Sequence record: MN432485
Origin: Shigella phage SFP17
Reading direction: 5' to 3' (one strand)
Length of the DNA stretch: 51,296 bases
Position 1 is the stretch's first letter, and each line of letters opens with the position of its first letter. Under the pieces are notes generated by a model. That model did no database searches. It was not told where the DNA came from and saw only the letters and a program-made list of their open reading frames with translations. Positions 4,036 to 51,265 of the stretch are shown here, one piece after another. A program made the translations under genes and the position numbers.

Positions 4036-5151
4036 TCAATCAGCCATTTCTGGATAATGCATAAATCGCCCCACTTCTCCGTATTCTTTATCGTAAACAA
4101 TAACAGCTGCGCGGCGACGAGAACGCCATCCACCGCGCGCAGCATATGCATCTTTTGCCGCCATAGTGCTATGCACTTCAACAATGCCCAGGCTTGTTTC
4201 AGTTACTGTCTGATGATGCCAGTGCCCTACGTGAGCATACATCATTTTTGAATTTCCGAAGTCTTCGCGCCAGTCTGCCGCGCACATCATTAGTAATGTT
4301 TCAGGCTTGCGTATAGTGTGCCCGTGATGATATGCCAGGAATGTTTTGCCATACTGTGTGTGATGAACTACTCGCGGAGAAACATCAACATGCACTCGCG
4401 GCTCATTCTCATATGCTGCCGCCATTGCTGCGCGCAACCAGATCATGCCGCTTTGGTCGTGGTTTCCTTCAATAATCTGAATCTCGACGTTTTTGTGTTT
4501 TGATAACAGCTTTGTGATTGCTCGACGCACTGACCGGATGGCAACATAAACAAGTTTTGCGTATCGACTATCTTGATCTAATACGTGACCGCTTGCAGGT
4601 GTCACCGCTTCCAGTCCGTCGCTGTGAAGCATATCACCACCAATCAGCAAAACAGCTTTTTCACTATCCGGCGCGCACTGGATGGAATAATCAATGAAAT
4701 TATTCATTACGCGCTCTGCTGTTGCTGTATCCCAATTCTCGCCGCATTCATGCTTATGCGCCATTGCGCCCAAGTGCATGTCAAAGATCGGATACAGTGA
4801 TAACGTCTCGCTATAATCCTTTTGTGATTCTGGCTGTGGATCAAGTCGAGGAACTTCTTCGCTAAATGCATCCATAGCGGCCTGCATTAATGCTTCTAAC
4901 TGTTCGCGGTCCTTACTTGTCTTAATCCATGTCATAACCACATTGCCATCTTTATCAATTAGCTTTGATTCTCCAGTAACACCAAAACCAGGTGATCCGA
5001 TGGTTGTAACTTTACCTTGCTTTGCTAATCGTGCCGCGCGTCGCTCAATGCTGCGAACGTTCATACCATACTCATTAGCGATCTGCTTATATGTCTTTCC
5101 CTGCTTGCGCTCATTGATAAATTGTTCATCTGTGATTTTGATTTGCTTCAT
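4036..5151 (-). CDS. calcineurin-like metallophosphoesterase with N-terminal HTH domain (371 aa)
   Basis: HTH-like TYKQIANEYGMNVRSIERRAARLAKQG; phosphoesterase motifs GDMLHSD, GNHD, GHWHH; RBS AAGGAGA; ATG at 5151 (track start 5154 is TTG). Confidence 0.8.
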   Translation of the reverse strand: MKQIKITDEQFINERKQGKTYKQIANEYGMNVRSIERRAARLAKQGKVTTIGSPGFGVTGESKLIDKDGNVVMTWIKTSKDREQLEALMQAAMDAFSEEVPRLDPQPESQKDYSETLSLYPIFDMHLGAMAHKHECGENWDTATAERVMNNFIDYSIQCAPDSEKAVLLIGGDMLHSDGLEAVTPASGHVLDQDSRYAKLVYVAIRSVRRAITKLLSKHKNVEIQIIEGNHDQSGMIWLRAAMAAAYENEPRVHVDVSPRVVHHTQYGKTFLAYHHGHTIRKPETLLMMCAADWREDFGNSKMMYAHVGHWHHQTVTETSLGIVEVHSTMAAKDAYAARGGWRSRRRAAVIVYDKEYGEVGRFMHYPEMAD

Positions 5152-5249
5152 CAAAAATTCTCCTTATCTCATTATAACAACGTATACAATAGAGATCGCC
5201 ATCATAACAGGTAAGGGCAAAAGTAACAAACGCCACATGATAATAATCC

Positions 5250-5661: not shown

Positions 5662-5693
5662 TTTTATTTCCTCATGTTTGTTTCGTTGAAATA

Positions 5694-5739
5694 ATTATGC
5701 CCGACACAAGGCCGGGCGTTTTAACAAAAAGTGCTATTT
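5694..5739 (-). promoter_or_regulatory. conserved-motif promoter (motif + 22 nt dyad spacer + CATAAT)
   Basis: AAATAGCACTTTTTGTTAAAAC then GCCCGG...CCGGGC then CATAAT; upstream of 5482-5661. Confidence 0.5.
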
Positions 5740-6679: not shown

Positions 6680-6713
6680 TTCTTAATTACCTGTTGCTTG
6701 TTGAACTGGTGTT

Positions 6714-6759
6714 ATTATGGCGCAATCCTTCGCGCCTGTTTTAACAAAAAGTGCTATTT
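6714..6759 (-). promoter_or_regulatory. conserved-motif promoter upstream of dam
   Basis: AAATAGCACTTTTTGTTAAAAC + 22 nt (GGCGCgaaggattGCGCC) + CATAAT. Confidence 0.5.
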
Positions 6760-9294: not shown

Positions 9295-9768
9295 ATGAAA
9301 GAACAGCGAATCGCAGTATCAACTGGTAAGATTGACAAACGCACAATCAATGGCAATAACGGAACTCGACGGGGTAAAGATAAGAAAAAGCGCAAGCGCC
9401 CTACAGGATACTATGTTTTAAAAGATGAAGTGCGCGCCGGACTAAAAGCACGGCTTGACATTCTTATTGAGTATTACGGCAGCGTGTCAGCAATGGCAAA
9501 GCGTCTTAACGTTAGCCAGCAAACTGTAAATCAGTGGCGCGTTCGCGGTATGATTTCAGCCGCTGGCGCTCAAAAGGTGCATAACGATTACAAAAAGTAT
9601 GGCTGTCAAGGCTATCGCGCTTCATTCTGCCGTCCAGATCTGCGATTTGATTCCAATGGAAAACCGCTCACAAAGAGATGTGATAAGCGTGAAATGTTGC
9701 GAGTGGTAAGAATGTCAGATTATGAGCCTGGCGGATTCCTGTATAAACCTGAAAGCACTAATTGCTAA
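9295..9768 (+). CDS. HTH DNA-binding protein (157 aa), putative replication/transcription regulator
   Basis: RBS GGAGA; HTH-like AMAKRLNVSQQTVNQWRVRG; basic N-terminus; directly upstream of primase. Confidence 0.65.
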   Translation: MKEQRIAVSTGKIDKRTINGNNGTRRGKDKKKRKRPTGYYVLKDEVRAGLKARLDILIEYYGSVSAMAKRLNVSQQTVNQWRVRGMISAAGAQKVHNDYKKYGCQGYRASFCRPDLRFDSNGKPLTKRCDKREMLRVVRMSDYEPGGFLYKPESTNC

Positions 9769-28696: not shown

Positions 28697-28709
28697 TTCT
28701 TTCTCCTTG

Positions 28710-28729
28710 ATAGCACTTTTTGTTAAAAG
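28710..28729 (+). promoter_or_regulatory. conserved motif copy in reverse orientation relative to flanking tail genes
   Basis: ATAGCACTTTTTGTTAAAAG reads rightward, abutting the RBS of the minus-strand chaperone gene; poor -10 (TAGCAT) at the usual spacing. Confidence 0.35.
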
Positions 28730-28765
28730 AATTGATTATGAATCGTGTAGCATGATTGTACAGTA

Positions 28766-28790
28766 ACAAAAAAAGGGGCGCAACGCCCCT
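28766..28790 (-). terminator. strong intrinsic terminator after major tail protein gene
   Basis: AGGGGCG-caa-CGCCCCT followed on minus strand by TTTTTTTT. Confidence 0.8.
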
Positions 28791-36740: not shown

Positions 36741-38309
36741 CTATTTGTTCCGCAAACCTGCCAATTTTTTCATTCTTCCTACCGGATCATCTGCCATGTT
36801 CATTTCAATGTTAACAGCATCAATGATGTTATCAACAATATCATCATGAGGATGCGAATCATCGAATGTAAACGCCGCAACTTCAGCCAGTATCTCAGCC
36901 AGCATAGGGTGGGATTCTGGAAGTGCTACGCGTCCGGCGCGCATTACTGGCGCTGCGTCCATTGCACGAGTAACCTTGTCTTTATCGCGCTGAACGGGAT
37001 TGATCTTGATCATGATTTTTTTCGCTGCGCTCTGAATCAAGCCAGTGCCAGACGATTTATCTTCAACATGAATCCTTCTCAACGTTCCGCATTCTTTATT
37101 GCGCTTCCAGCACTGATTAACGAACGCAACAAAATTAGTCTCAAGGTCTGGCGCTTCCCATTTTCCGCGAACACCATCAATGAAGTAAACGCGATCTTTA
37201 TACATCCCCCAATAACAGATCACGGAGTAGTCGTTAAGCTCCCCTGTTTTCTGCGCGGTATCAACCGTGATAAATGTATATTCAAAGCGATCCGGTTTTG
37301 GTAGCGTGCATTTCTCGCTGCTTCCGTAATACCGAAACCACTCTGTTTTAAACACGTTGCCGCCAAGCGCAACAGGCTGTTGCTGATACTGACTAGCAAA
37401 CGTGTACGGATCAGCATTTCGAAGTGCAAGTAATTCCTCCGCGCTTTCCTTAGCAGGCCAGAATGAATAATGAGCAACACCATCAATCATTACTGGCTTA
37501 CTGGACAAAACATCGCGATCAAACTCAGGCTTTAACCAATCAGGAAGCGTTTCGCGATATTCCTTAGTAACGAGCGCCGGAATACTGACCACCTTAAACT
37601 GGATGCCGCCCATGCCGCCGTTTGTCATGAACCATGTTGAATCATTGACGTGTAGCCGTTGCTGGACCATTACGATTGGCGTGGTGTCCTTCATTCGACG
37701 TGATCGCACCGTGTTCTTTAGGCGCATGTGTCCGGCTTCGCGCTTCACCTTAGAAAGCATATCATCCGGCTTGTCTGGATCGTCAAGAACCAGCATACCA
37801 GTAAATCCATCATCCATGTAGCCGCCACGCAGACCAGTAACCTGACCACCGATAGAACGCGAGTTAACTTGCAATTTAACCTTGCCGCCATCGGTTACAA
37901 TCAAATCCTTTGCGCTCGCCTTTGCCAGCTTTCCAGGCCATAGCTCCTGCCATTCTGGAGAACCAATAATCTCTTTGATGCGGTTGCTATTCTGCTGGAC
38001 AAGGCCATCACTAAACGAAAGATTAAGATTTCGCACCTTCTTACTTTTCAATGACGCATAAGGTGACATGTGGATCGAGAATATCTCTGTTTTACCACTG
38101 CCTGGCGTTATGTTGAAAATTACATTCTGTGACTCGCCTTTGATGATTTTTTCAACTTCGCTACATAGGTAACTGAAATGCCAGTTTCCTAAGAATTTCT
38201 GACCTTGCAATAACTGAAACCAAATGCGGATCATCTTTTCGAATGAATATTCGCTCATTTCCTTAACGGCGCGTTTTTGCGCCGCTGTTAAGTCTTCCCA
38301 AATCAGCAT
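36741..38309 (-). CDS. terL: terminase large subunit
   Basis: Walker A-like TPGSGKTE, Walker B-like LVLDDPD, C-terminal acidic nuclease-like region; followed by portal. Confidence 0.85.
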   Translation of the reverse strand: MLIWEDLTAAQKRAVKEMSEYSFEKMIRIWFQLLQGQKFLGNWHFSYLCSEVEKIIKGESQNVIFNITPGSGKTEIFSIHMSPYASLKSKKVRNLNLSFSDGLVQQNSNRIKEIIGSPEWQELWPGKLAKASAKDLIVTDGGKVKLQVNSRSIGGQVTGLRGGYMDDGFTGMLVLDDPDKPDDMLSKVKREAGHMRLKNTVRSRRMKDTTPIVMVQQRLHVNDSTWFMTNGGMGGIQFKVVSIPALVTKEYRETLPDWLKPEFDRDVLSSKPVMIDGVAHYSFWPAKESAEELLALRNADPYTFASQYQQQPVALGGNVFKTEWFRYYGSSEKCTLPKPDRFEYTFITVDTAQKTGELNDYSVICYWGMYKDRVYFIDGVRGKWEAPDLETNFVAFVNQCWKRNKECGTLRRIHVEDKSSGTGLIQSAAKKIMIKINPVQRDKDKVTRAMDAAPVMRAGRVALPESHPMLAEILAEVAAFTFDDSHPHDDIVDNIIDAVNIEMNMADDPVGRMKKLAGLRNK

Positions 38310-38830
38310 TATATCTTCTCCAGAATGTCAATTACCGCCTCTTTGACTTCCTCCGCCGTTACAGCGTCAACGCTGGCGCTTGTGTTATTCTCAATGGTAA
38401 CGGTGGCTGGCTTTTCAATGCCGATCTCTTTACCAATGAATCCGGCGTTAACAATATTGTTTGCAGCAAGCTGGAATTTTTGCTCGTAAACAACGCCGTC
38501 GATAAAGTCCATAACCTCGCTGAATCCTGGCTCACGTCGCCATTTTTCAAGTACGGAAGCAGAAAGGCCAGCGAATAATCGGAATCCGTTTAAGGTGAAC
38601 ACTCGCGGCTTGTGAATCTTGCTTTCGTATACGTCACCCTGAAAGGATGCCGTTTCCGCAGCCTGTATATGGTTTTCCTCGGCCCACGTAAAGTAACGTA
38701 CAGCCAGATCAAACACCTGTTCCGGCGTGTACTTGTGCGCCTTTGTCATTTTTGCAATATCGCCATATTGCTTATTATATAGTTTTTTAAAATTGCAAGC
38801 CTTTACTGCTGGCTCAACGTTTTTAGCCAT
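38309..38830 (-). CDS. putative terminase small subunit
   Basis: ATG at 38830 with RBS AAGGAGGG; 173 aa directly upstream of and overlapping terL start; call is positional. Confidence 0.55.
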   Translation of the reverse strand: MAKNVEPAVKACNFKKLYNKQYGDIAKMTKAHKYTPEQVFDLAVRYFTWAEENHIQAAETASFQGDVYESKIHKPRVFTLNGFRLFAGLSASVLEKWRREPGFSEVMDFIDGVVYEQKFQLAANNIVNAGFIGKEIGIEKPATVTIENNTSASVDAVTAEEVKEAVIDILEKI

Positions 38831-38881
38831 AATGCGCCCTCCTTTATAACAAAGCCTCATTATAGACAAATTGCAGACAAT

Positions 38882-38903
38882 AAAAAACCCGCCATTTGGC
38901 GGG
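38882..38903 (-). terminator. intrinsic terminator upstream of terminase genes
   Basis: CCCGCC-attt-GGCGGG followed on minus strand by TTTTTT; a TATAAT hexamer follows before the terS RBS. Confidence 0.65.
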
Positions 38904-38910
38904 TAGTTGG

Positions 38911-39150
38911 TCAATACTTGTATTTTACTTTCTCTGGATTTGTTTTCATAGTGCTGTGAATCCTGCCACCGATTGATAAATAGTGACCGCGAACCTGCCA
39001 AACTTTCTGCTCTTCATCCCAAAACGCTAAAGCAAATTCACCCTTTTTTGACTTATAGCGAACGCCAACAGCCACCACGAAAGATACAGCAACAAAGCCG
39101 ATTAGAACACCAATGATTAAAGAAACCAAACCAATAATTACAGAACTCAT
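38911..39150 (-). CDS. small membrane protein (79 aa)
   Basis: N-terminal ~30 aa hydrophobic helix; RBS AAGGAAAA; terminator downstream. Confidence 0.5.
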   Translation of the reverse strand: MSSVIIGLVSLIIGVLIGFVAVSFVVAVGVRYKSKKGEFALAFWDEEQKVWQVRGHYLSIGGRIHSTMKTNPEKVKYKY

Positions 39151-40412: not shown

Positions 40413-40642
40413 AATCCAGCATCCTCCGCCGTCTCGTTTTTGCGCTTCCAGTATTCAATAGCCTTCTGAATGTATCCTGCCTCGTTACGCCATGCGGCAG
40501 TTTCTGCCGCTCGCGTTGGTGCTGGTGTAAGTTGACGGCAAATCTGATCCGCAACTTCACCCATAGCGCCTTCCATACCAAATCCAGAAATGTAGCTCAT
40601 CACTTGATATGCTTGCTTCTCTGAAAGGTTAATCGTGATCAT
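40409..40642 (-). CDS. hypothetical protein (77 aa)
   Basis: RBS GGAG; translationally coupled. Confidence 0.6.
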   Translation of the reverse strand: MITINLSEKQAYQVMSYISGFGMEGAMGEVADQICRQLTPAPTRAAETAAWRNEAGYIQKAIEYWKRKNETAEDAGL

Positions 40643-40896
40643 TCGATAATCTCCGCTTCATTCTCTGTAAGACTAAACCAATCTGTTTCTTTTACTTCGC
40701 CAAATTCGCCGTTGTGATTAATGCCAGCCATCGCCCACATCTCACCATCTTTGTAAAGCTCGACAACCATTTCCTTTCCGTTTTCGAATCCGGCCCACTC
40801 GCGCAATGTTGGAGATTCTGGATCTGGTCTGTAGTCAACATTGATTAACTTAACTCTAACATGACCGATAAAATTTTTATCTTTTAAGGTTGACAT
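40639..40896 (-). CDS. hypothetical protein (85 aa)
   Basis: RBS GAGGAAAG; motif promoter 40929-40973 upstream. Confidence 0.6.
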   Translation of the reverse strand: MSTLKDKNFIGHVRVKLINVDYRPDPESPTLREWAGFENGKEMVVELYKDGEMWAMAGINHNGEFGEVKETDWFSLTENEAEIIE

Positions 40897-44930: not shown

Positions 44931-44975
44931 ATTATACCTGGCCCCACATTTGAGTTTTAACAATTCGTGCTATTT
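44931..44975 (-). promoter_or_regulatory. conserved-motif promoter (GAATTG variant)
   Basis: AAATAGCACGAATTGTTAAAAC + 21 nt + TATAAT; upstream of 44670-44900. Confidence 0.5.
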
Positions 44976-45879
44976 ACACTTTAACCTTCCACTTAACCAT
45001 CGTTCCGCGCTTGATGCTGATCTCTCCTGCAACAGTCCGGTTTTTCGCACTGCCATAATGAAGCAGAAGAATAACAACGTCATCATGAATCTCGATCGTC
45101 TTTGGCTTTGCCGTTAATTCAAACCATGTGCCATCCGCAATTTGGACGCCTTTTAGCGTGGCGGCAAGCGGCATGTCTTCAATTGCGCCATGAGTTACGA
45201 TTTCTTGATGGGCAAAGGCGCTCTTATCAATACGCCATCCTCCGGACGCCTTAATTGTTTGACTGTGAATCTGCTCACCAATACGTCGAGCGGCGTTATC
45301 TATCGCCTGCGCAAAATATGATTTACCTCCGCCAATTGGCGCATCTCCAAACAAGTGTTTCGTAATATCTTCCACGTAATACACTTTATCCTTTTCGTTG
45401 TGCGGATTGAATTTGTTGTGACCATTGACAAAGAAATCAACTTTCAACTCCGATTTCTGACCATCGCTATAAACGCCATTGTCGCGCGATGTGAAGCGAA
45501 TCGTTGAATTACCAACCGTGTAGAACGTGATCGGATACTTGATATTGTCCACACTTAAGCACCACAGCTTTTTGTAGTCGCAGGTTTTCATCTCGACCGT
45601 ATGAATCTCTGATCGCTCAGTTGAGCGCACTGGTAACACTTGGCCTTTATATGGCTTATAGTGCAAACATGTGTAGCCTGGCATTGCGTAGCCGTAGTCA
45701 TGTATTGAGTTGTAGTGCTTATTGTGCGCATCAATGAAGTGCTCAATCTCCATAGTTGAAACATCAGGCTTTCCGTATTCGTTAAACTTAGTGCATGTAT
45801 TTTTGTCGGAATACATGAAGTGACCAACGCCGCGAGATTGGAAGGTGATCGGGAATTTAATGTCAGCTAATTTTAACAT
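44974..45879 (-). CDS. hypothetical protein (301 aa) with N-terminal internal repeat
   Basis: RBS AGGAGAAAG; repeated IK(F/Y)PITF segments; His-rich; no family recognised. Confidence 0.7.
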   Translation of the reverse strand: MLKLADIKFPITFQSRGVGHFMYSDKNTCTKFNEYGKPDVSTMEIEHFIDAHNKHYNSIHDYGYAMPGYTCLHYKPYKGQVLPVRSTERSEIHTVEMKTCDYKKLWCLSVDNIKYPITFYTVGNSTIRFTSRDNGVYSDGQKSELKVDFFVNGHNKFNPHNEKDKVYYVEDITKHLFGDAPIGGGKSYFAQAIDNAARRIGEQIHSQTIKASGGWRIDKSAFAHQEIVTHGAIEDMPLAATLKGVQIADGTWFELTAKPKTIEIHDDVVILLLHYGSAKNRTVAGEISIKRGTMVKWKVKV

Positions 45880-46365: not shown

Positions 46366-46397
46366 TTTGTTTTCCTCAATCTCGTTTCGATGAGGCT

Positions 46398-46443
46398 ATT
46401 ATGCCAGGATTTGCACCTGGCGTTTTAACAAAAAGTGCTATTT
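46398..46443 (-). promoter_or_regulatory. conserved-motif promoter
   Basis: AAATAGCACTTTTTGTTAAAAC + 22 nt (CCAGGtgcaaatCCTGG) + CATAAT; upstream of 46180-46365. Confidence 0.5.
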
Positions 46444-46698
46444 AATATCTGTTGTGACTTGTTGGTGTATTACGTTTTTGCCGTTGCGGTATGTGCTATC
46501 CGTTGCGCCTTTGCAATTTGTGTAATAGATCGCGCGACCGTTATCATAGAATCTGTATGCTGTGCATCCGTCAACAGTGAACAGGCGACCGACTTTGAAA
46601 TCTGACTCCACGCCTACGACAACCGTTGATTCTGACGCCTTTTCGCATCCGGTCAGCGTAGCGATTGCAATCAAAAGTCCAATTAATGCCTTATTCAT
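46438..46698 (-). CDS. lipoprotein (86 aa)
   Basis: Signal peptide with lipobox LTGC; RBS AGGTGGGGG. Confidence 0.6.
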   Translation of the reverse strand: MNKALIGLLIAIATLTGCEKASESTVVVGVESDFKVGRLFTVDGCTAYRFYDNGRAIYYTNCKGATDSTYRNGKNVIHQQVTTDIK

Positions 46699-47267
46699 TA
46701 TTCATCCCCCACCTTTACCATCTCGTTGAGCATTTCATTCATTCGCTCAAGTGCGATTGCCGCACCCTCCAGGCGCTCACCTTCCAGATCACTGATTCGC
46801 GGCTGTGTTTTCAGTAGTTGAGCAACAAACTTTGCTCGCCACTTGATTTCAAGTTTCGCTATATCATCTCCAGTCAGAACGCGAGGCTTGCTTTTGGCTT
46901 CAGTGAGCGTAAACACAAAGCCATCACCCTCATCAGTCACCTTTCGCTTAATGCTGATCACGCCTTTTTGCTTTACTTCTGGCACACGGTTGACCACCTG
47001 GCGCATGTACGATGCTGTAATTGCGTCGCCGTTCTCCACGTTAGCGCACAAGAAAAGTGCTGGCATGAATACATTATTACGCTCACCACTACCAATTGCC
47101 GCGCCCAGGTCGCGAAGCATATCGCAGAACTCACTACGCGACATGGTGCTAATATTTTCTTCATTCATGGCGTCTACTCCTTTTGTTGCGTTTAAACTGG
47201 ATGCATTATTGCCTTGCCCTTCCCACGTGTCAATGTATTCTTGTGTTTTAATAACAATTTTTGGCAT
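46698..47267 (-). CDS. hypothetical early protein (189 aa)
   Basis: First minus-strand gene after the 47.3-47.9 kb non-coding region; clean ORF. Confidence 0.6.
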   Translation of the reverse strand: MPKIVIKTQEYIDTWEGQGNNASSLNATKGVDAMNEENISTMSRSEFCDMLRDLGAAIGSGERNNVFMPALFLCANVENGDAITASYMRQVVNRVPEVKQKGVISIKRKVTDEGDGFVFTLTEAKSKPRVLTGDDIAKLEIKWRAKFVAQLLKTQPRISDLEGERLEGAAIALERMNEMLNEMVKVGDE

Positions 47268-47375
47268 GTGGCGCGTTTAAAGATAACAAAATGCTTCAGT
47301 TAAGTCATTGGTTTTTCTGTTAAAAGTGACCTTGTTGACTTGGTTGACGGAGGATTGCCCCATACCCATATATAT

Positions 47376-47545
47376 ACATATAAAAATCACCACACATCAC
47401 CATTGATTAAAAAATATACAATCACACATACATATCACCACAAACAATACCACTCCACCATATACCCATAGAACAAGCTCAACAGTAAATAACAAATATA
47501 AATACATATATAACTAACTTATTGATTTTATGGGTATATATATAA
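47376..47545. repeat. iteron/AT-rich repeat block, copy B
   Basis: TAAAAATCACC plus 4-5 ATCAC(C/A) iterons, then AACAAATATAAATACATATATAACTAACTTATTGATTTT; direct orientation relative to copy A; plus strand almost G-free over ~125 bp. Confidence 0.6.
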
Positions 47546-47768
47546 ATTTTACTTTGTTCTTTTTGTTGATGAACGCCGATTCTGTTATCTAAAAGTGCGG
47601 AGGCTTATTTGAGATAACATGGGGAACAGAAATAACAGATGCGCGCGCCAGGATTGCTGGAAAGGATGCAAGAGGGCCGTGTTTCTCTATCCCCTCCACA
47701 CAAAAAGTTAATCACTTGATTAAAATTGACCAAACTCAAAGTCTCACAATCCAGGTGATCGCGAATGA

Positions 47769-47813
47769 GTTATTCCTGTTATTCCTGATTAATGGAATAG
47801 ATGGAATAATAAC
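47769..47813. promoter_or_regulatory. operator-like repeat array (GTTATTCCT x2 followed by inverted GGAATAgatGGAATAATAAC)
   Basis: Four half-sites with dyad symmetry centred about 47790, 10-50 bp upstream of motif promoter 47822. Confidence 0.4.
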
Positions 47814-47821
47814 CAGTCAGC

Positions 47822-47867
47822 AAATAGCACTTTTTGTTAAAACGTGCCTGACTGGATTCGGCATAAT
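47822..47867 (+). promoter_or_regulatory. conserved-motif promoter
   Basis: AAATAGCACTTTTTGTTAAAAC + 22 nt + CATAAT; upstream of 47906-48178. Confidence 0.5.
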
Positions 47868-47905
47868 GCACACATCGAAACGAGATACCATTCAGGAGAT
47901 AGCAA

Positions 47906-48178
47906 ATGAACATCAGCAAAACCACTTTCAACTTTGCAAAGCGTCATGGTCTGGACCTGACTGTTGAGAATTTCGGCGATGTTCTGCAACTCTGCATTTG
48001 GGAAGCGGATAACGATTGCGAGTGGCTTTGCTCTTATCGTATCAACTACGATTGCTTAACCTGGCATGGCAACGTTTACCTGCCGCAAGAAGTGAAAGAG
48101 GAATTGCCAGCGACCATCAATAATGAAGTGTTTTTGCGCAAAGTCATGAAGTTTATTGCTGAGGAGATCAAGAAATGA
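47906..48178 (+). CDS. hypothetical protein (90 aa)
   Basis: RBS AGGAGA; motif promoter 47822-47867 upstream. Confidence 0.6.
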   Translation: MNISKTTFNFAKRHGLDLTVENFGDVLQLCIWEADNDCEWLCSYRINYDCLTWHGNVYLPQEVKEELPATINNEVFLRKVMKFIAEEIKK

Positions 48179-48420
48179 TTAATGAAGTGGATTTTGAACT
48201 TGCTGAGGCCCATGTAAGGGCCAAAAAGATGGGATTTCGGATCTTGACGCAAACAGTCGAGTTCCCGTCGATGCCGTTCGCATCATTCCATAAAGTGACG
48301 GTATTCAGTCGCAAACGCGAGTGTAATGCGCTAATACATGTTGGTGATGATAATCGCATGGCTAAATTCATTAACGAGTCCTGTGATGTTCTGAGGGCCG
48401 TTAAACACGATCAACAATGA
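48175..48420 (+). CDS. hypothetical protein (81 aa)
   Basis: ATGA overlap with upstream gene. Confidence 0.55.
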   Translation: MINEVDFELAEAHVRAKKMGFRILTQTVEFPSMPFASFHKVTVFSRKRECNALIHVGDDNRMAKFINESCDVLRAVKHDQQ

Positions 48421-48433
48421 AGGAGAAATAAAG

Positions 48434-48700
48434 ATGGCGCGAATCAATGCACCTATTCCAGTTAAGCGCAAAGCACGTTTGCTCAATAACGGATGTTACG
48501 CCCTGCGGCCTGCATTTAAGGATCGCACCTTTCCGGTTATCGTTAACGTATCTCACGTAAGCCGTAGCGGAAACCTGGTATTCGTTGAAGGCTCTGACCT
48601 GGCGGCGCTTGGATTCTATGGCGGCATATTCAATGAGCCGCTTGCATTTTGGGCCAAGCATCCATCAACCGGATTGCCAGAAATTGAACTTATCGACTAA
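48434..48700 (+). CDS. hypothetical protein (88 aa)
   Basis: RBS AAGGAGAA. Confidence 0.6.
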   Translation: MARINAPIPVKRKARLLNNGCYALRPAFKDRTFPVIVNVSHVSRSGNLVFVEGSDLAALGFYGGIFNEPLAFWAKHPSTGLPEIELID

Positions 48701-49272: not shown

Positions 49273-49467
49273 ATGGAAAATCAGGTTGACGTTAAAGTTG
49301 TACAGCGTGACACCACTCACGAGAAAGGAATCTTTAAGAAAGGCGCTATCATCACAATCGATCTTGATGATATGGTTGCGTATCACTCCGGCCTGACATG
49401 GAACGTTGTTAAACATGGCAATGATTTCAAACTGCGTGGATTCAATACTTTTATGGAGGTTGTGTAA
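49273..49467 (+). CDS. hypothetical protein (64 aa)
   Basis: RBS GAGGA; motif promoter upstream. Confidence 0.55.
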   Translation: MENQVDVKVVQRDTTHEKGIFKKGAIITIDLDDMVAYHSGLTWNVVKHGNDFKLRGFNTFMEVV

Positions 49468-51225: not shown

Positions 51226-51265
51226 CACTTTTTGTTAAAAGCCAGGTGTAAAAGCCTGGCATAAT
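51220..51265 (+). promoter_or_regulatory. conserved-motif promoter driving the gene at window position 1
   Basis: AAATAGCACTTTTTGTTAAAAG + 22 nt (GCCAGGtgtaaaaGCCTGGC) + CATAAT, then RBS AAAGGAGA at window end. Confidence 0.5.

Follow-up and report, generated by a model that had tools for sequence, protein, structure and literature searches.

What does the phased array of short repeats in the largest non-coding region of this T1-like phage do: does it control the promoter motif just downstream, or does it serve packaging or replication? The question extends to the whole group, as Drexlerviridae (T1-like phages) are abundant and present in therapy collections, and their gene regulation, pac site and replication origin are essentially uncharacterised. 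Based on comparative sequence analysis, we propose that the array serves in cis as a binding platform for a multimeric protein with sequence specificity, which may modulate the first rightward early promoter, a reading to which we assign a probability of roughly one half.

Genomic setting

The window (the whole stretch of DNA analysed, 51.3 kb) was placed by megablast as a complete Hanrivervirus genome (Drexlerviridae, Tempevirinae; T1-like). Over the test region the closest matches are JLBYU41, JLBYU09, Henu8, KarlJaspers and others, at 93-97% identity. Leftward genes extend from ~47.2 kb through the terminase and structural genes, and rightward genes extend from 47.9 kb past the record end and up to ~2.65 kb; the cumulative GC-skew minimum at 47-48 kb corresponds to this strand switch. 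The array lies between the divergent gene blocks in the largest non-coding region, a stretch of ~640-740 nt according to the start chosen for the first leftward gene. We rejected the array region as coding DNA, as the ORFs called there in some GenBank records vary in frame and extent and are broken in the window. Rfam searches over 47000-48200 returned chance-level matches only.

The remainder of the non-coding stretch has several features of its own. An AT-rich tract of ~120 nt (47400-47520), with nearly no G on the + strand (A+C-rich), lies between two divergent promoters. The leftward promoter (47166-47233, -) is a strong sigma-70-type sequence, with TTGACA at 47233-47228, a 17-nt spacer and AATAAT at 47210-47205, followed on its 3' side by AGGAG and then by an ATG at 47168. 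The 189-aa ORF called for the DUF7174 gene (start 47267) is probably too long, as both the Pfam match and the TLS homologue start near residue 42. Upstream of the leftward promoter are three GTCAAC/GTCAC direct repeats with 9-bp phasing (47326-47348, -). Analogous repeats occupy the equivalent place in T1 (three copies of CGATTAACA) and TLS (two copies of CGTGAACA), and the GTCAAC x3 repeat of the window is absent from seven close relatives.

Structure of the array

The array (47769-47813) reads GTTATTCCT GTTATTCCT GATTAAT GGAATAGAT GGAATAATAAC and thus comprises two direct TATTCC and two inverted GGAATA boxes with 9-bp phasing (Table 1). A repeat finder returned the 9-nt direct repeat (47769-47777 and 47778-47786), two copies of ATGGAATA placed 9 nt apart (47792-47799 and 47801-47808), and an imperfect inverted repeat of 16 nt (47770-47785 and 47794-47809) that is 81% complementary. 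The core common to all four copies is TATTCC/GGAATA, and three of the four share the longer TTATTCC/GGAATAA. The array ends 10 nt before the 21-nt promoter motif and is therefore upstream of the core promoter, not over it.

An earlier sequence-only reading of this DNA had described four half-sites in direct and inverted copies. That arrangement is indeed present, and no cluster of four hexamers arose in 1000 simulated genomes (first-order Markov model), the best result being three within 45 nt, in 5 of the 1000 runs. The exact half-site given by that reading, GGAATAAC, does not occur, and the hexamer TATTCC/GGAATA takes its place as the common core. Searching for the half-site elsewhere returned 35 TATTCC/GGAATA hexamers in the whole genome, as well as boxes in the related loci described below. 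The longer sequence GTTATTCC occurs four times in the genome against 1.26 expected.

Table 1. Array and promoter features in the window, with the arrays that occupy the corresponding position in other lineages.
Feature	Position	Strand	Remarks
Distal direct repeat 1, GTTATTCCT	47769..47777	+	core TATTCC at 47771-47776; box intact in 34 of 36 distinct homologous arrays
Direct repeat 2, GTTATTCCT	47778..47786	+	core TATTCC at 47780-47785; TATTC invariant in alignment A4
Central spacer GATTAAT, approximate dyad centre	47787..47793		sequence not conserved among lineages
Inverted box GGAATA, extra 9-nt unit	47794..47799	-	Hanrivervirus/Warwickvirus clade only; elsewhere degenerate GAAT/ATTG
Promoter-proximal inverted box GGAATAATAAC	47803..47813	-	GGAATAAT invariant in 12 of 12 aligned lineages; 15 nt from ATAGCA of the motif
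21-nt family-wide promoter motif AATAGCACTTTTTGTTAAAAC	47823..47843	+	marbox-like, forward; predicted at ~-51 to -31
Predicted -10 hexamer CATAAT	47862..47867	+	19 nt after the 19-mer box
RBS AGGAGA (47894-47899) and R1 (47906-48178), first rightward early gene	47894..48178	+	90 aa, without Pfam match
Array in the same position: GATTAC x4, 10-bp phasing			GATTAC-type array also ahead of the upstream tandem promoter of T1
Array in the same position: TTGCA-N6-7-TGCAA pairs			SU57 among carriers
Array in the same position: TGTCAAAATGACA			
Array in the same position: AGACC-N4-GGTCT x2			TLS
Array in the same position: TTGACgggcATCAA			FNR-box-like (TTGAC-N4-ATCAA)
Array in the same position: CCCGTTCATCA x2			
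Array in the same position: GAACG type			CF1

The downstream promoter motif

A motif promoter just downstream of the array had also been claimed, and it was recovered here: AATAGCACTTTTTGTTAAAAC at 47823-47843 is one of 14 copies of this type of 21-mer in the genome, where none is expected. Around 20 further motif copies were identified, including those at 601, 5718, 6738, 9262, 16532, 18041, 28709, 40953, 42299, 43656, 44954, 45959, 46422, 48700, 49197, 49850 and 51221. The 21-mer copies are co-oriented with the local genes, except for the copy at 28709, which is antisense to structural genes. A GC hairpin follows this antisense copy after ~50 nt (28709-28790, +) and is the terminator of the opposite strand; a short antisense transcript may arise from this copy.

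Published work has described the 21-mer in TLS, T1 and Rtp as the intergenic 21-base repeat (consensus aaATAGCACnnnTTGnTAAAA), with its function listed as an open question (PMC11447400). The element at 47823-47843 is a copy of that repeat. The TATTCC array, in contrast, is a separate element, which lies upstream of only one of at least 14 copies and is absent from the published description (PMC11447400).

We compared the motif with the marbox consensus AYnGCACnnWnnRYYAAAY (PMC3709825) and found 19 matches with no more than one mismatch, against 1.5 expected, three of them perfect. A TATAAT-like hexamer (5-6 of 6 positions) lies 18-19 nt downstream in 18 of the 21 motif copies examined, with no canonical -35 at normal spacing. 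Class II promoters of MarA, SoxS and Rob have a forward box centred at -36 to -55 that overlaps the -35 position (PMC12052159). The marbox-like box spans ~-50 to -32 and is centred at ~-41 relative to the predicted transcription start, which we infer to be near 47874. Given the -10-like hexamer 18-19 nt after the box, the forward box would stand at class II marbox geometry, and the 21-nt repeat fits the E. coli marbox consensus in this arrangement, as judged by its sequence. We found no literature link between T1-like phages and marboxes, and no AraC-family protein among 30 window proteins scanned against Pfam.

Many motif copies have a GC-rich inverted repeat between the motif and the -10 hexamer. 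Its sequence varies (for example GCCAGGtgcaaatCCTGGC, -11.3 kcal/mol, z -3.6), with sites at 47844-47861, 46395-46425 (-), 5690-5718 (-), 6710-6738 (-) and 51242-51260, and it seems that structure, not sequence, is kept.

Conservation of the boxes in related phages

To the loci fetched by anchoring on the small terminase (80) and on the DUF3987 helicase (58), we added T1, TLS, SU57, Jahat_MG145 and BHUENT2 from GenBank. The same boxes were identified in 59 related loci, which comprise 36 distinct array and motif sequences. The carriers include Hanrivervirus, Warwickvirus, Tunavirus (T1 and others), several unclassified lineages and a large distant clade, probably Webervirus, whose small terminase (TerS) is ~45% identical to that of the window. 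Within Hanrivervirus the array is near-invariant, but the flanks are equally so, and the informative comparisons are therefore the distant ones.

Taken singly, the three key hexamers are each preserved in 34 of the 36 variants, and the spacer sequences diverge freely. The direct repeats are 2-3 nt apart, and the distance from direct repeat 2 to the proximal GGAATA is 8-9 nt, or 17 nt in the Hanrivervirus/Warwickvirus clade because of an extra 9-nt GGAATAnnn unit. Most lineages thus have two direct boxes and a single inverted box. The distance from the proximal GGAATA to the ATAGCA of the motif is 15-17 nt in all 36 variants. Alignment A4 shows the same contrast, as GGAATAAT and TATTC are invariant and the flanks are not. 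GG precedes the motif in all clades but Hanrivervirus, giving GGAATAGCAC and hence another GGAATA across the first bases of the motif, at its 5' edge. Selection acts on the sequence of the boxes, and their register to the promoter motif is fixed; the near-invariant hexamers, free spacers and fixed distance to the motif fit recognition by a protein, not a hairpin.

Secondary arrays of the form TATTCC-N2-TATTCC-N7-8-GGAATA were found inside coding DNA in two pairs of related phages, at the 3' end of a pnk-like gene (L043 ~13618; L045 ~13707, the same site as L143 ~975) and in the middle of a 162-aa ORF (L079 ~20177, L085 ~18542). In the pnk case the secondary block is identical in both phages while its flanks diverge, a pattern typical of protein sites. 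The secondary arrays are ~0.85-6 kb from the main array and none adjoins a motif promoter. The window, T1 and TLS each have a single array.

Other arrays in the same position and the first early gene

In other lineages, unrelated repeat or dyad arrays lie at an equal distance upstream of the first rightward motif promoter (Table 1). These were found at L021/L149, L023/L103, L025-27/L105-109, L013 (TLS) with L113/114, L036/41/42/119-122, L123/153, L151 and L277 (SU57). Close relatives can have different arrays, as do TLS and CF1, and as does the window compared with L021 and L023, in which the first downstream gene is 87-94% identical to that of the window. The presence of unrelated arrays in one and the same slot suggests an exchangeable operator cassette at this position.

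The gene directly downstream, R1, has a homologue with the same -10 and 5'UTR in the Krischvirus (RB49-like) phage vB_EcoM_G37-3 (L278 380-717). The segment 47861-48178, with R1, its -10 and its 5'UTR, is common to RB49-like T4-type phages (39 nt at 92-95%). In this Krischvirus phage the promoter is a canonical TTGACA-N17-CATAAT with a terminator hairpin ahead of it, and the sharing of its -10 and 5'UTR supports the -10 assignment in the window. R1 together with its -10 and 5'UTR looks like a mobile early-gene cassette.

Search for the binding protein

The sequence-only reading had named two possible binders, and neither is supported by its distribution. For the Cro-like helix-turn-helix (HTH) protein encoded at 9295-9768, identity and recognition helix follow phylogeny and not array type. 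Specifically, its HTH region is the same in TLS as in CF1 despite their different arrays, and its recognition helix varies among phages that carry the TATTCC array. The other candidate (4036-5154) is the 'DNA repair exonuclease' of the family and is 80% identical in TLS, which is without the array. The operator-like reading is thus supported in part, in that the conserved hexamers and the fixed register of 15-17 nt suit a protein site tied to the promoter, but neither named binder is supported. A host protein, which that reading had also mentioned, is still a candidate.

Other phage proteins were considered and rejected. DUF7174 (46698-47267), the product of the first leftward gene, is present in TLS, which lacks the array, and missing in T1, which bears it. 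R1 is 93-94% identical in phages with GATTAC arrays. TerS, the primase and the DUF3987 helicase, the last compared window by window with its C-terminus included, all follow phylogeny and not array type. We also searched for any ORF associated with the array. All window ORFs were compared by tblastn with 32 loci anchored on the helicase and 46 anchored on TerS, and by phmmer with 25 merged partial genomes; neither search returned an ORF present in all array-positive genomes and in none of the array-negative ones. Profile iteration was applied to the two top candidates, and one run was contaminated by translation of the promoter motif, the profile drifting because the peptide 'IALFVKT' is common to ORFs that read through the motif. 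Of the three best candidates, all of which failed on closer comparison, the ORF at 48434-48700 was set aside tentatively, as apparent relatives, recognised by eye in the drifted run, occur in array-negative lineages and include TLS gp04. That at 44974-45879 has homologues in the array-negative TLS, N11 and N12, and neither T1 nor close array-positive relatives have that at 40639-40896.

The 88-aa product of 48434-48700 (+) appears to belong to a divergent family of small proteins that share 'NGGY..(M)K..tFP'. Its apparent members, seen by eye in the contaminated profile run, occur in several lineages, TLS gp04 among them, sometimes across the intergenic region.

We found no AraC-, GntR- or RHH-type domains among the 30 window proteins scanned against Pfam. 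A scan of GTDB genomes for the array pattern yielded at least 120 stretches; the matches listed belong to scattered unrelated taxa, with one from Enterobacterales. No match was obtained by blastn of the array against E. coli genomes, a search in which BLAST is too insensitive for so short a site. As the hexamer is constant across divergent phages of Enterobacteriaceae and no co-varying phage gene was found, we lean towards a host protein conserved in Enterobacteriaceae as the binder. Alternatively, the binder may be a small phage protein that is unrecognisable by sequence.

Proposed role in early transcription

We propose that a multimeric protein modulates the first rightward early promoter, which would drive R1 and the genes downstream. 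Its protomers would bind with cooperativity to the two direct and the one or two inverted TATTCC boxes, at a spacing of 8-9 bp, and so occupy ~-105 to -61. In most lineages they might also occupy the further GGAATA over the first bases of the marbox-like element, at ~-52. The bound protein could either hinder or help the factor and RNA polymerase acting at the marbox-like element, and of the two directions repression or gating is the more likely. A precedent for this mode of binding is NanR, which shows cooperative hexamer binding on (GGTATA)3 with 8-9 bp phasing and requires at least two repeats (PMC8012715).

The likeness to the NanR operator of the E. coli sialic-acid regulon extends to the sites themselves, since both consist of short hexamers at the same phasing. 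The minus strand of the window reads GGAATAACAGGAATAAC, and the nanA operator reads GGTATAACAGGTATAAAGGTATA. However, essentially all phage copies have A where the NanR hexamer has T at its third base, inverted boxes are present in the phage array in addition, and the array is upstream of its promoter, whereas the NanR operator is downstream of the polymerase site. We therefore rejected the array as a NanR operator, which requires GGTATA hexamers, as GGAATA is found in 34 of the 36 variants.

Operators with several half-sites are also used by dimer-of-dimer regulators, such as HipB (TATCC-N8-GGATA), Fur with its hexamer array, and the Arc/MetJ type with tandem boxes. The inner pair of the phage array, TATTCC-N8/9-GGAATA, is similarly a dyad of 6-bp half-sites, and the additional phased boxes suggest higher-order binding. 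The box sequence, however, is unlike that of each of these operators, no cognate repressor gene is present near the phage array, and the phage is virulent and without an immunity region. Although the kind of element is familiar, the TATTCC array as found across the family, with its exchangeable slot, appears not to have been described before.

Several observations weigh against the proposed operator. Array type is not tracked by any of the proteins tested as binder (TerS, DUF7174, R1, the Cro-like HTH protein, the C-terminus of the helicase and the other ORFs), and no usable host site emerged from the searches for one. The array is upstream of the core promoter and not over it, and it adjoins assigned pac ends. 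Given these nearby ends and the secondary arrays away from motif promoters, the primary role of the array could differ from promoter control.

The rules of the array (box sequence, phasing and promoter register), together with the swapped arrays, provide a handle on the protein that would control the first early operon. The marbox fit of the 21-nt repeat may matter more, as it makes an open question directly testable in rob, marA and soxS mutants. A wider and rather doubtful extension is that early transcription in T1-like phages may be wired to host regulators, with Rob, MarA or SoxS acting at class II marboxes and the first promoter, beside the packaging end, gated in addition by swappable lineage-specific cassettes that read another host protein. 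Were this true, a strictly virulent phage family would sense host physiology at entry.

Packaging, replication and RNA structure as alternatives

The packaging start assigned in T1, TLS and SU57 falls close to the array, which the sequence-only reading missed, and a role in packaging must therefore be weighed. The array would then be part of the pac region, with TerS or an accessory factor binding the boxes and the first cut falling some tens of bases to their left. Repeated short boxes flank the cut at pac sites such as those of P1 and SPP1, and the phage arrays resemble the P1 pac hexamers and SPP1 pacL/pacR in being repeated boxes beside an assigned packaging start. The T1 and TLS records both begin within the same intergenic region. 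T1 carries the same TATTCC array (ATTATTCC...TGGAATAtcTGGAATAAT) ~36 nt from its 48836/1 junction, and its position 1, which we assumed to be pac from the 2.8-kb terminal-repeat annotation of the record, aligns near window 47734. Position 1 of TLS is ~85 nt from the TLS AGACC array. The SU57 end, defined by PhageTerm and a read-coverage step, is ~85 nt to the left of the TTGCA array of that phage and ~165 nt from its first rightward motif promoter. By homology, the array is ~35-165 nt from the packaging ends assigned at low resolution in these three phages.

The resolution of these ends limits their weight. The TLS pac was mapped with restriction enzymes to ~5,882 bp from a HindIII site, and the exact base was chosen by weak similarity to the P22 pac (PMC11447400). 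Moreover, the arrays differ from the P1 and SPP1 sites in showing no co-variation with TerS, in keeping a register to a promoter motif, and in sometimes being present in more than one copy per genome. The TerS proteins of L021 and L023 are 65-68% identical to that of the window, yet their arrays are unrelated to its array; those of T1 and the probable Webervirus clade are only 45-50% identical, yet the TATTCC array is common to them and the window. TLS and CF1 likewise are close relatives with different arrays, and some genomes have a second TATTCC array inside genes ~0.85-6 kb away. The register to the promoter motif is fixed, whereas the distance to the assigned ends varies from 36 to 165 nt. 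In lambda, T1 presumably starts packaging between P and Q (the esp location), and no TATTCC cluster occurs between these genes, which is a weak test. Overall, we consider a pac function possible but unlikely. The comparison nevertheless narrows the search for pac, as in T1, TLS and SU57 every low-resolution assignment is within ~165 nt of such an array.

Two further observations concern packaging. AATCA(C/A) motifs with ~10-11 nt phasing occur near the assigned genome ends and immediately upstream of arrays, at the T1 junction (L010 1-70, L011 1960-2001), at the TLS junction (L012 1-60, L013 960-1001) and in L064-L094; they are a possible alternative candidate for pac or for IHF-type recognition. 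The small-terminase ORF (38309-39001, -) is 57 codons longer upstream than the start conserved in T1 and TLS. Its true start is likely Met58, near 38830, and the Pfam domain GP3_package covers residues 90-189.

The boxes might instead be replication-origin iterons, with either the adjacent HTH protein or the primase/helicase module of P4-alpha type as initiator. The largest non-coding region, where the GC-skew minimum and the strand switch fall, has three to four phased repeats, with an AT-rich tract (47400-47560) ~200 nt from the array, and the T1 record describes the replication genes as P4-alpha-like. Phage P4 has short iterons at two separate loci, of which the secondary TATTCC arrays are reminiscent. 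However, neither the helicase (its C-terminal domain included) nor the primase nor the HTH protein co-varies with array type, and the GC-skew minimum is accounted for by gene orientation. The fixed register of the array is to the promoter motif, and the AT-rich tract, the candidate unwinding element, is ~200 nt away and not adjacent. We regard an origin as distinctly improbable.

That the inverted repeat acts as a hairpin or cruciform (a terminator, processing site or other structural signal) and not as a protein site is the least credible explanation: although the window array folds better than shuffled controls both as RNA (-16.9 kcal/mol, z -4.7) and as DNA (-7 kcal/mol, z -3.3), its stem is AT-rich with no T-run, its arms are conserved in sequence with no compensatory changes among the 36 variants, the single inverted box that most lineages have against two direct boxes leaves a 6-bp stem, no upstream promoter that would transcribe the array is evident in the window, and the array region matches no Rfam family. 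Judging from the variants, it is sequence and not pairing that is under selection in the array.

Returning to the rightward genes, we note that 49273-49467 (+) encodes a 64-aa protein that matches Pfam PF25180, 'Phage antiviral trigger protein Gp54' (E = 2e-37).
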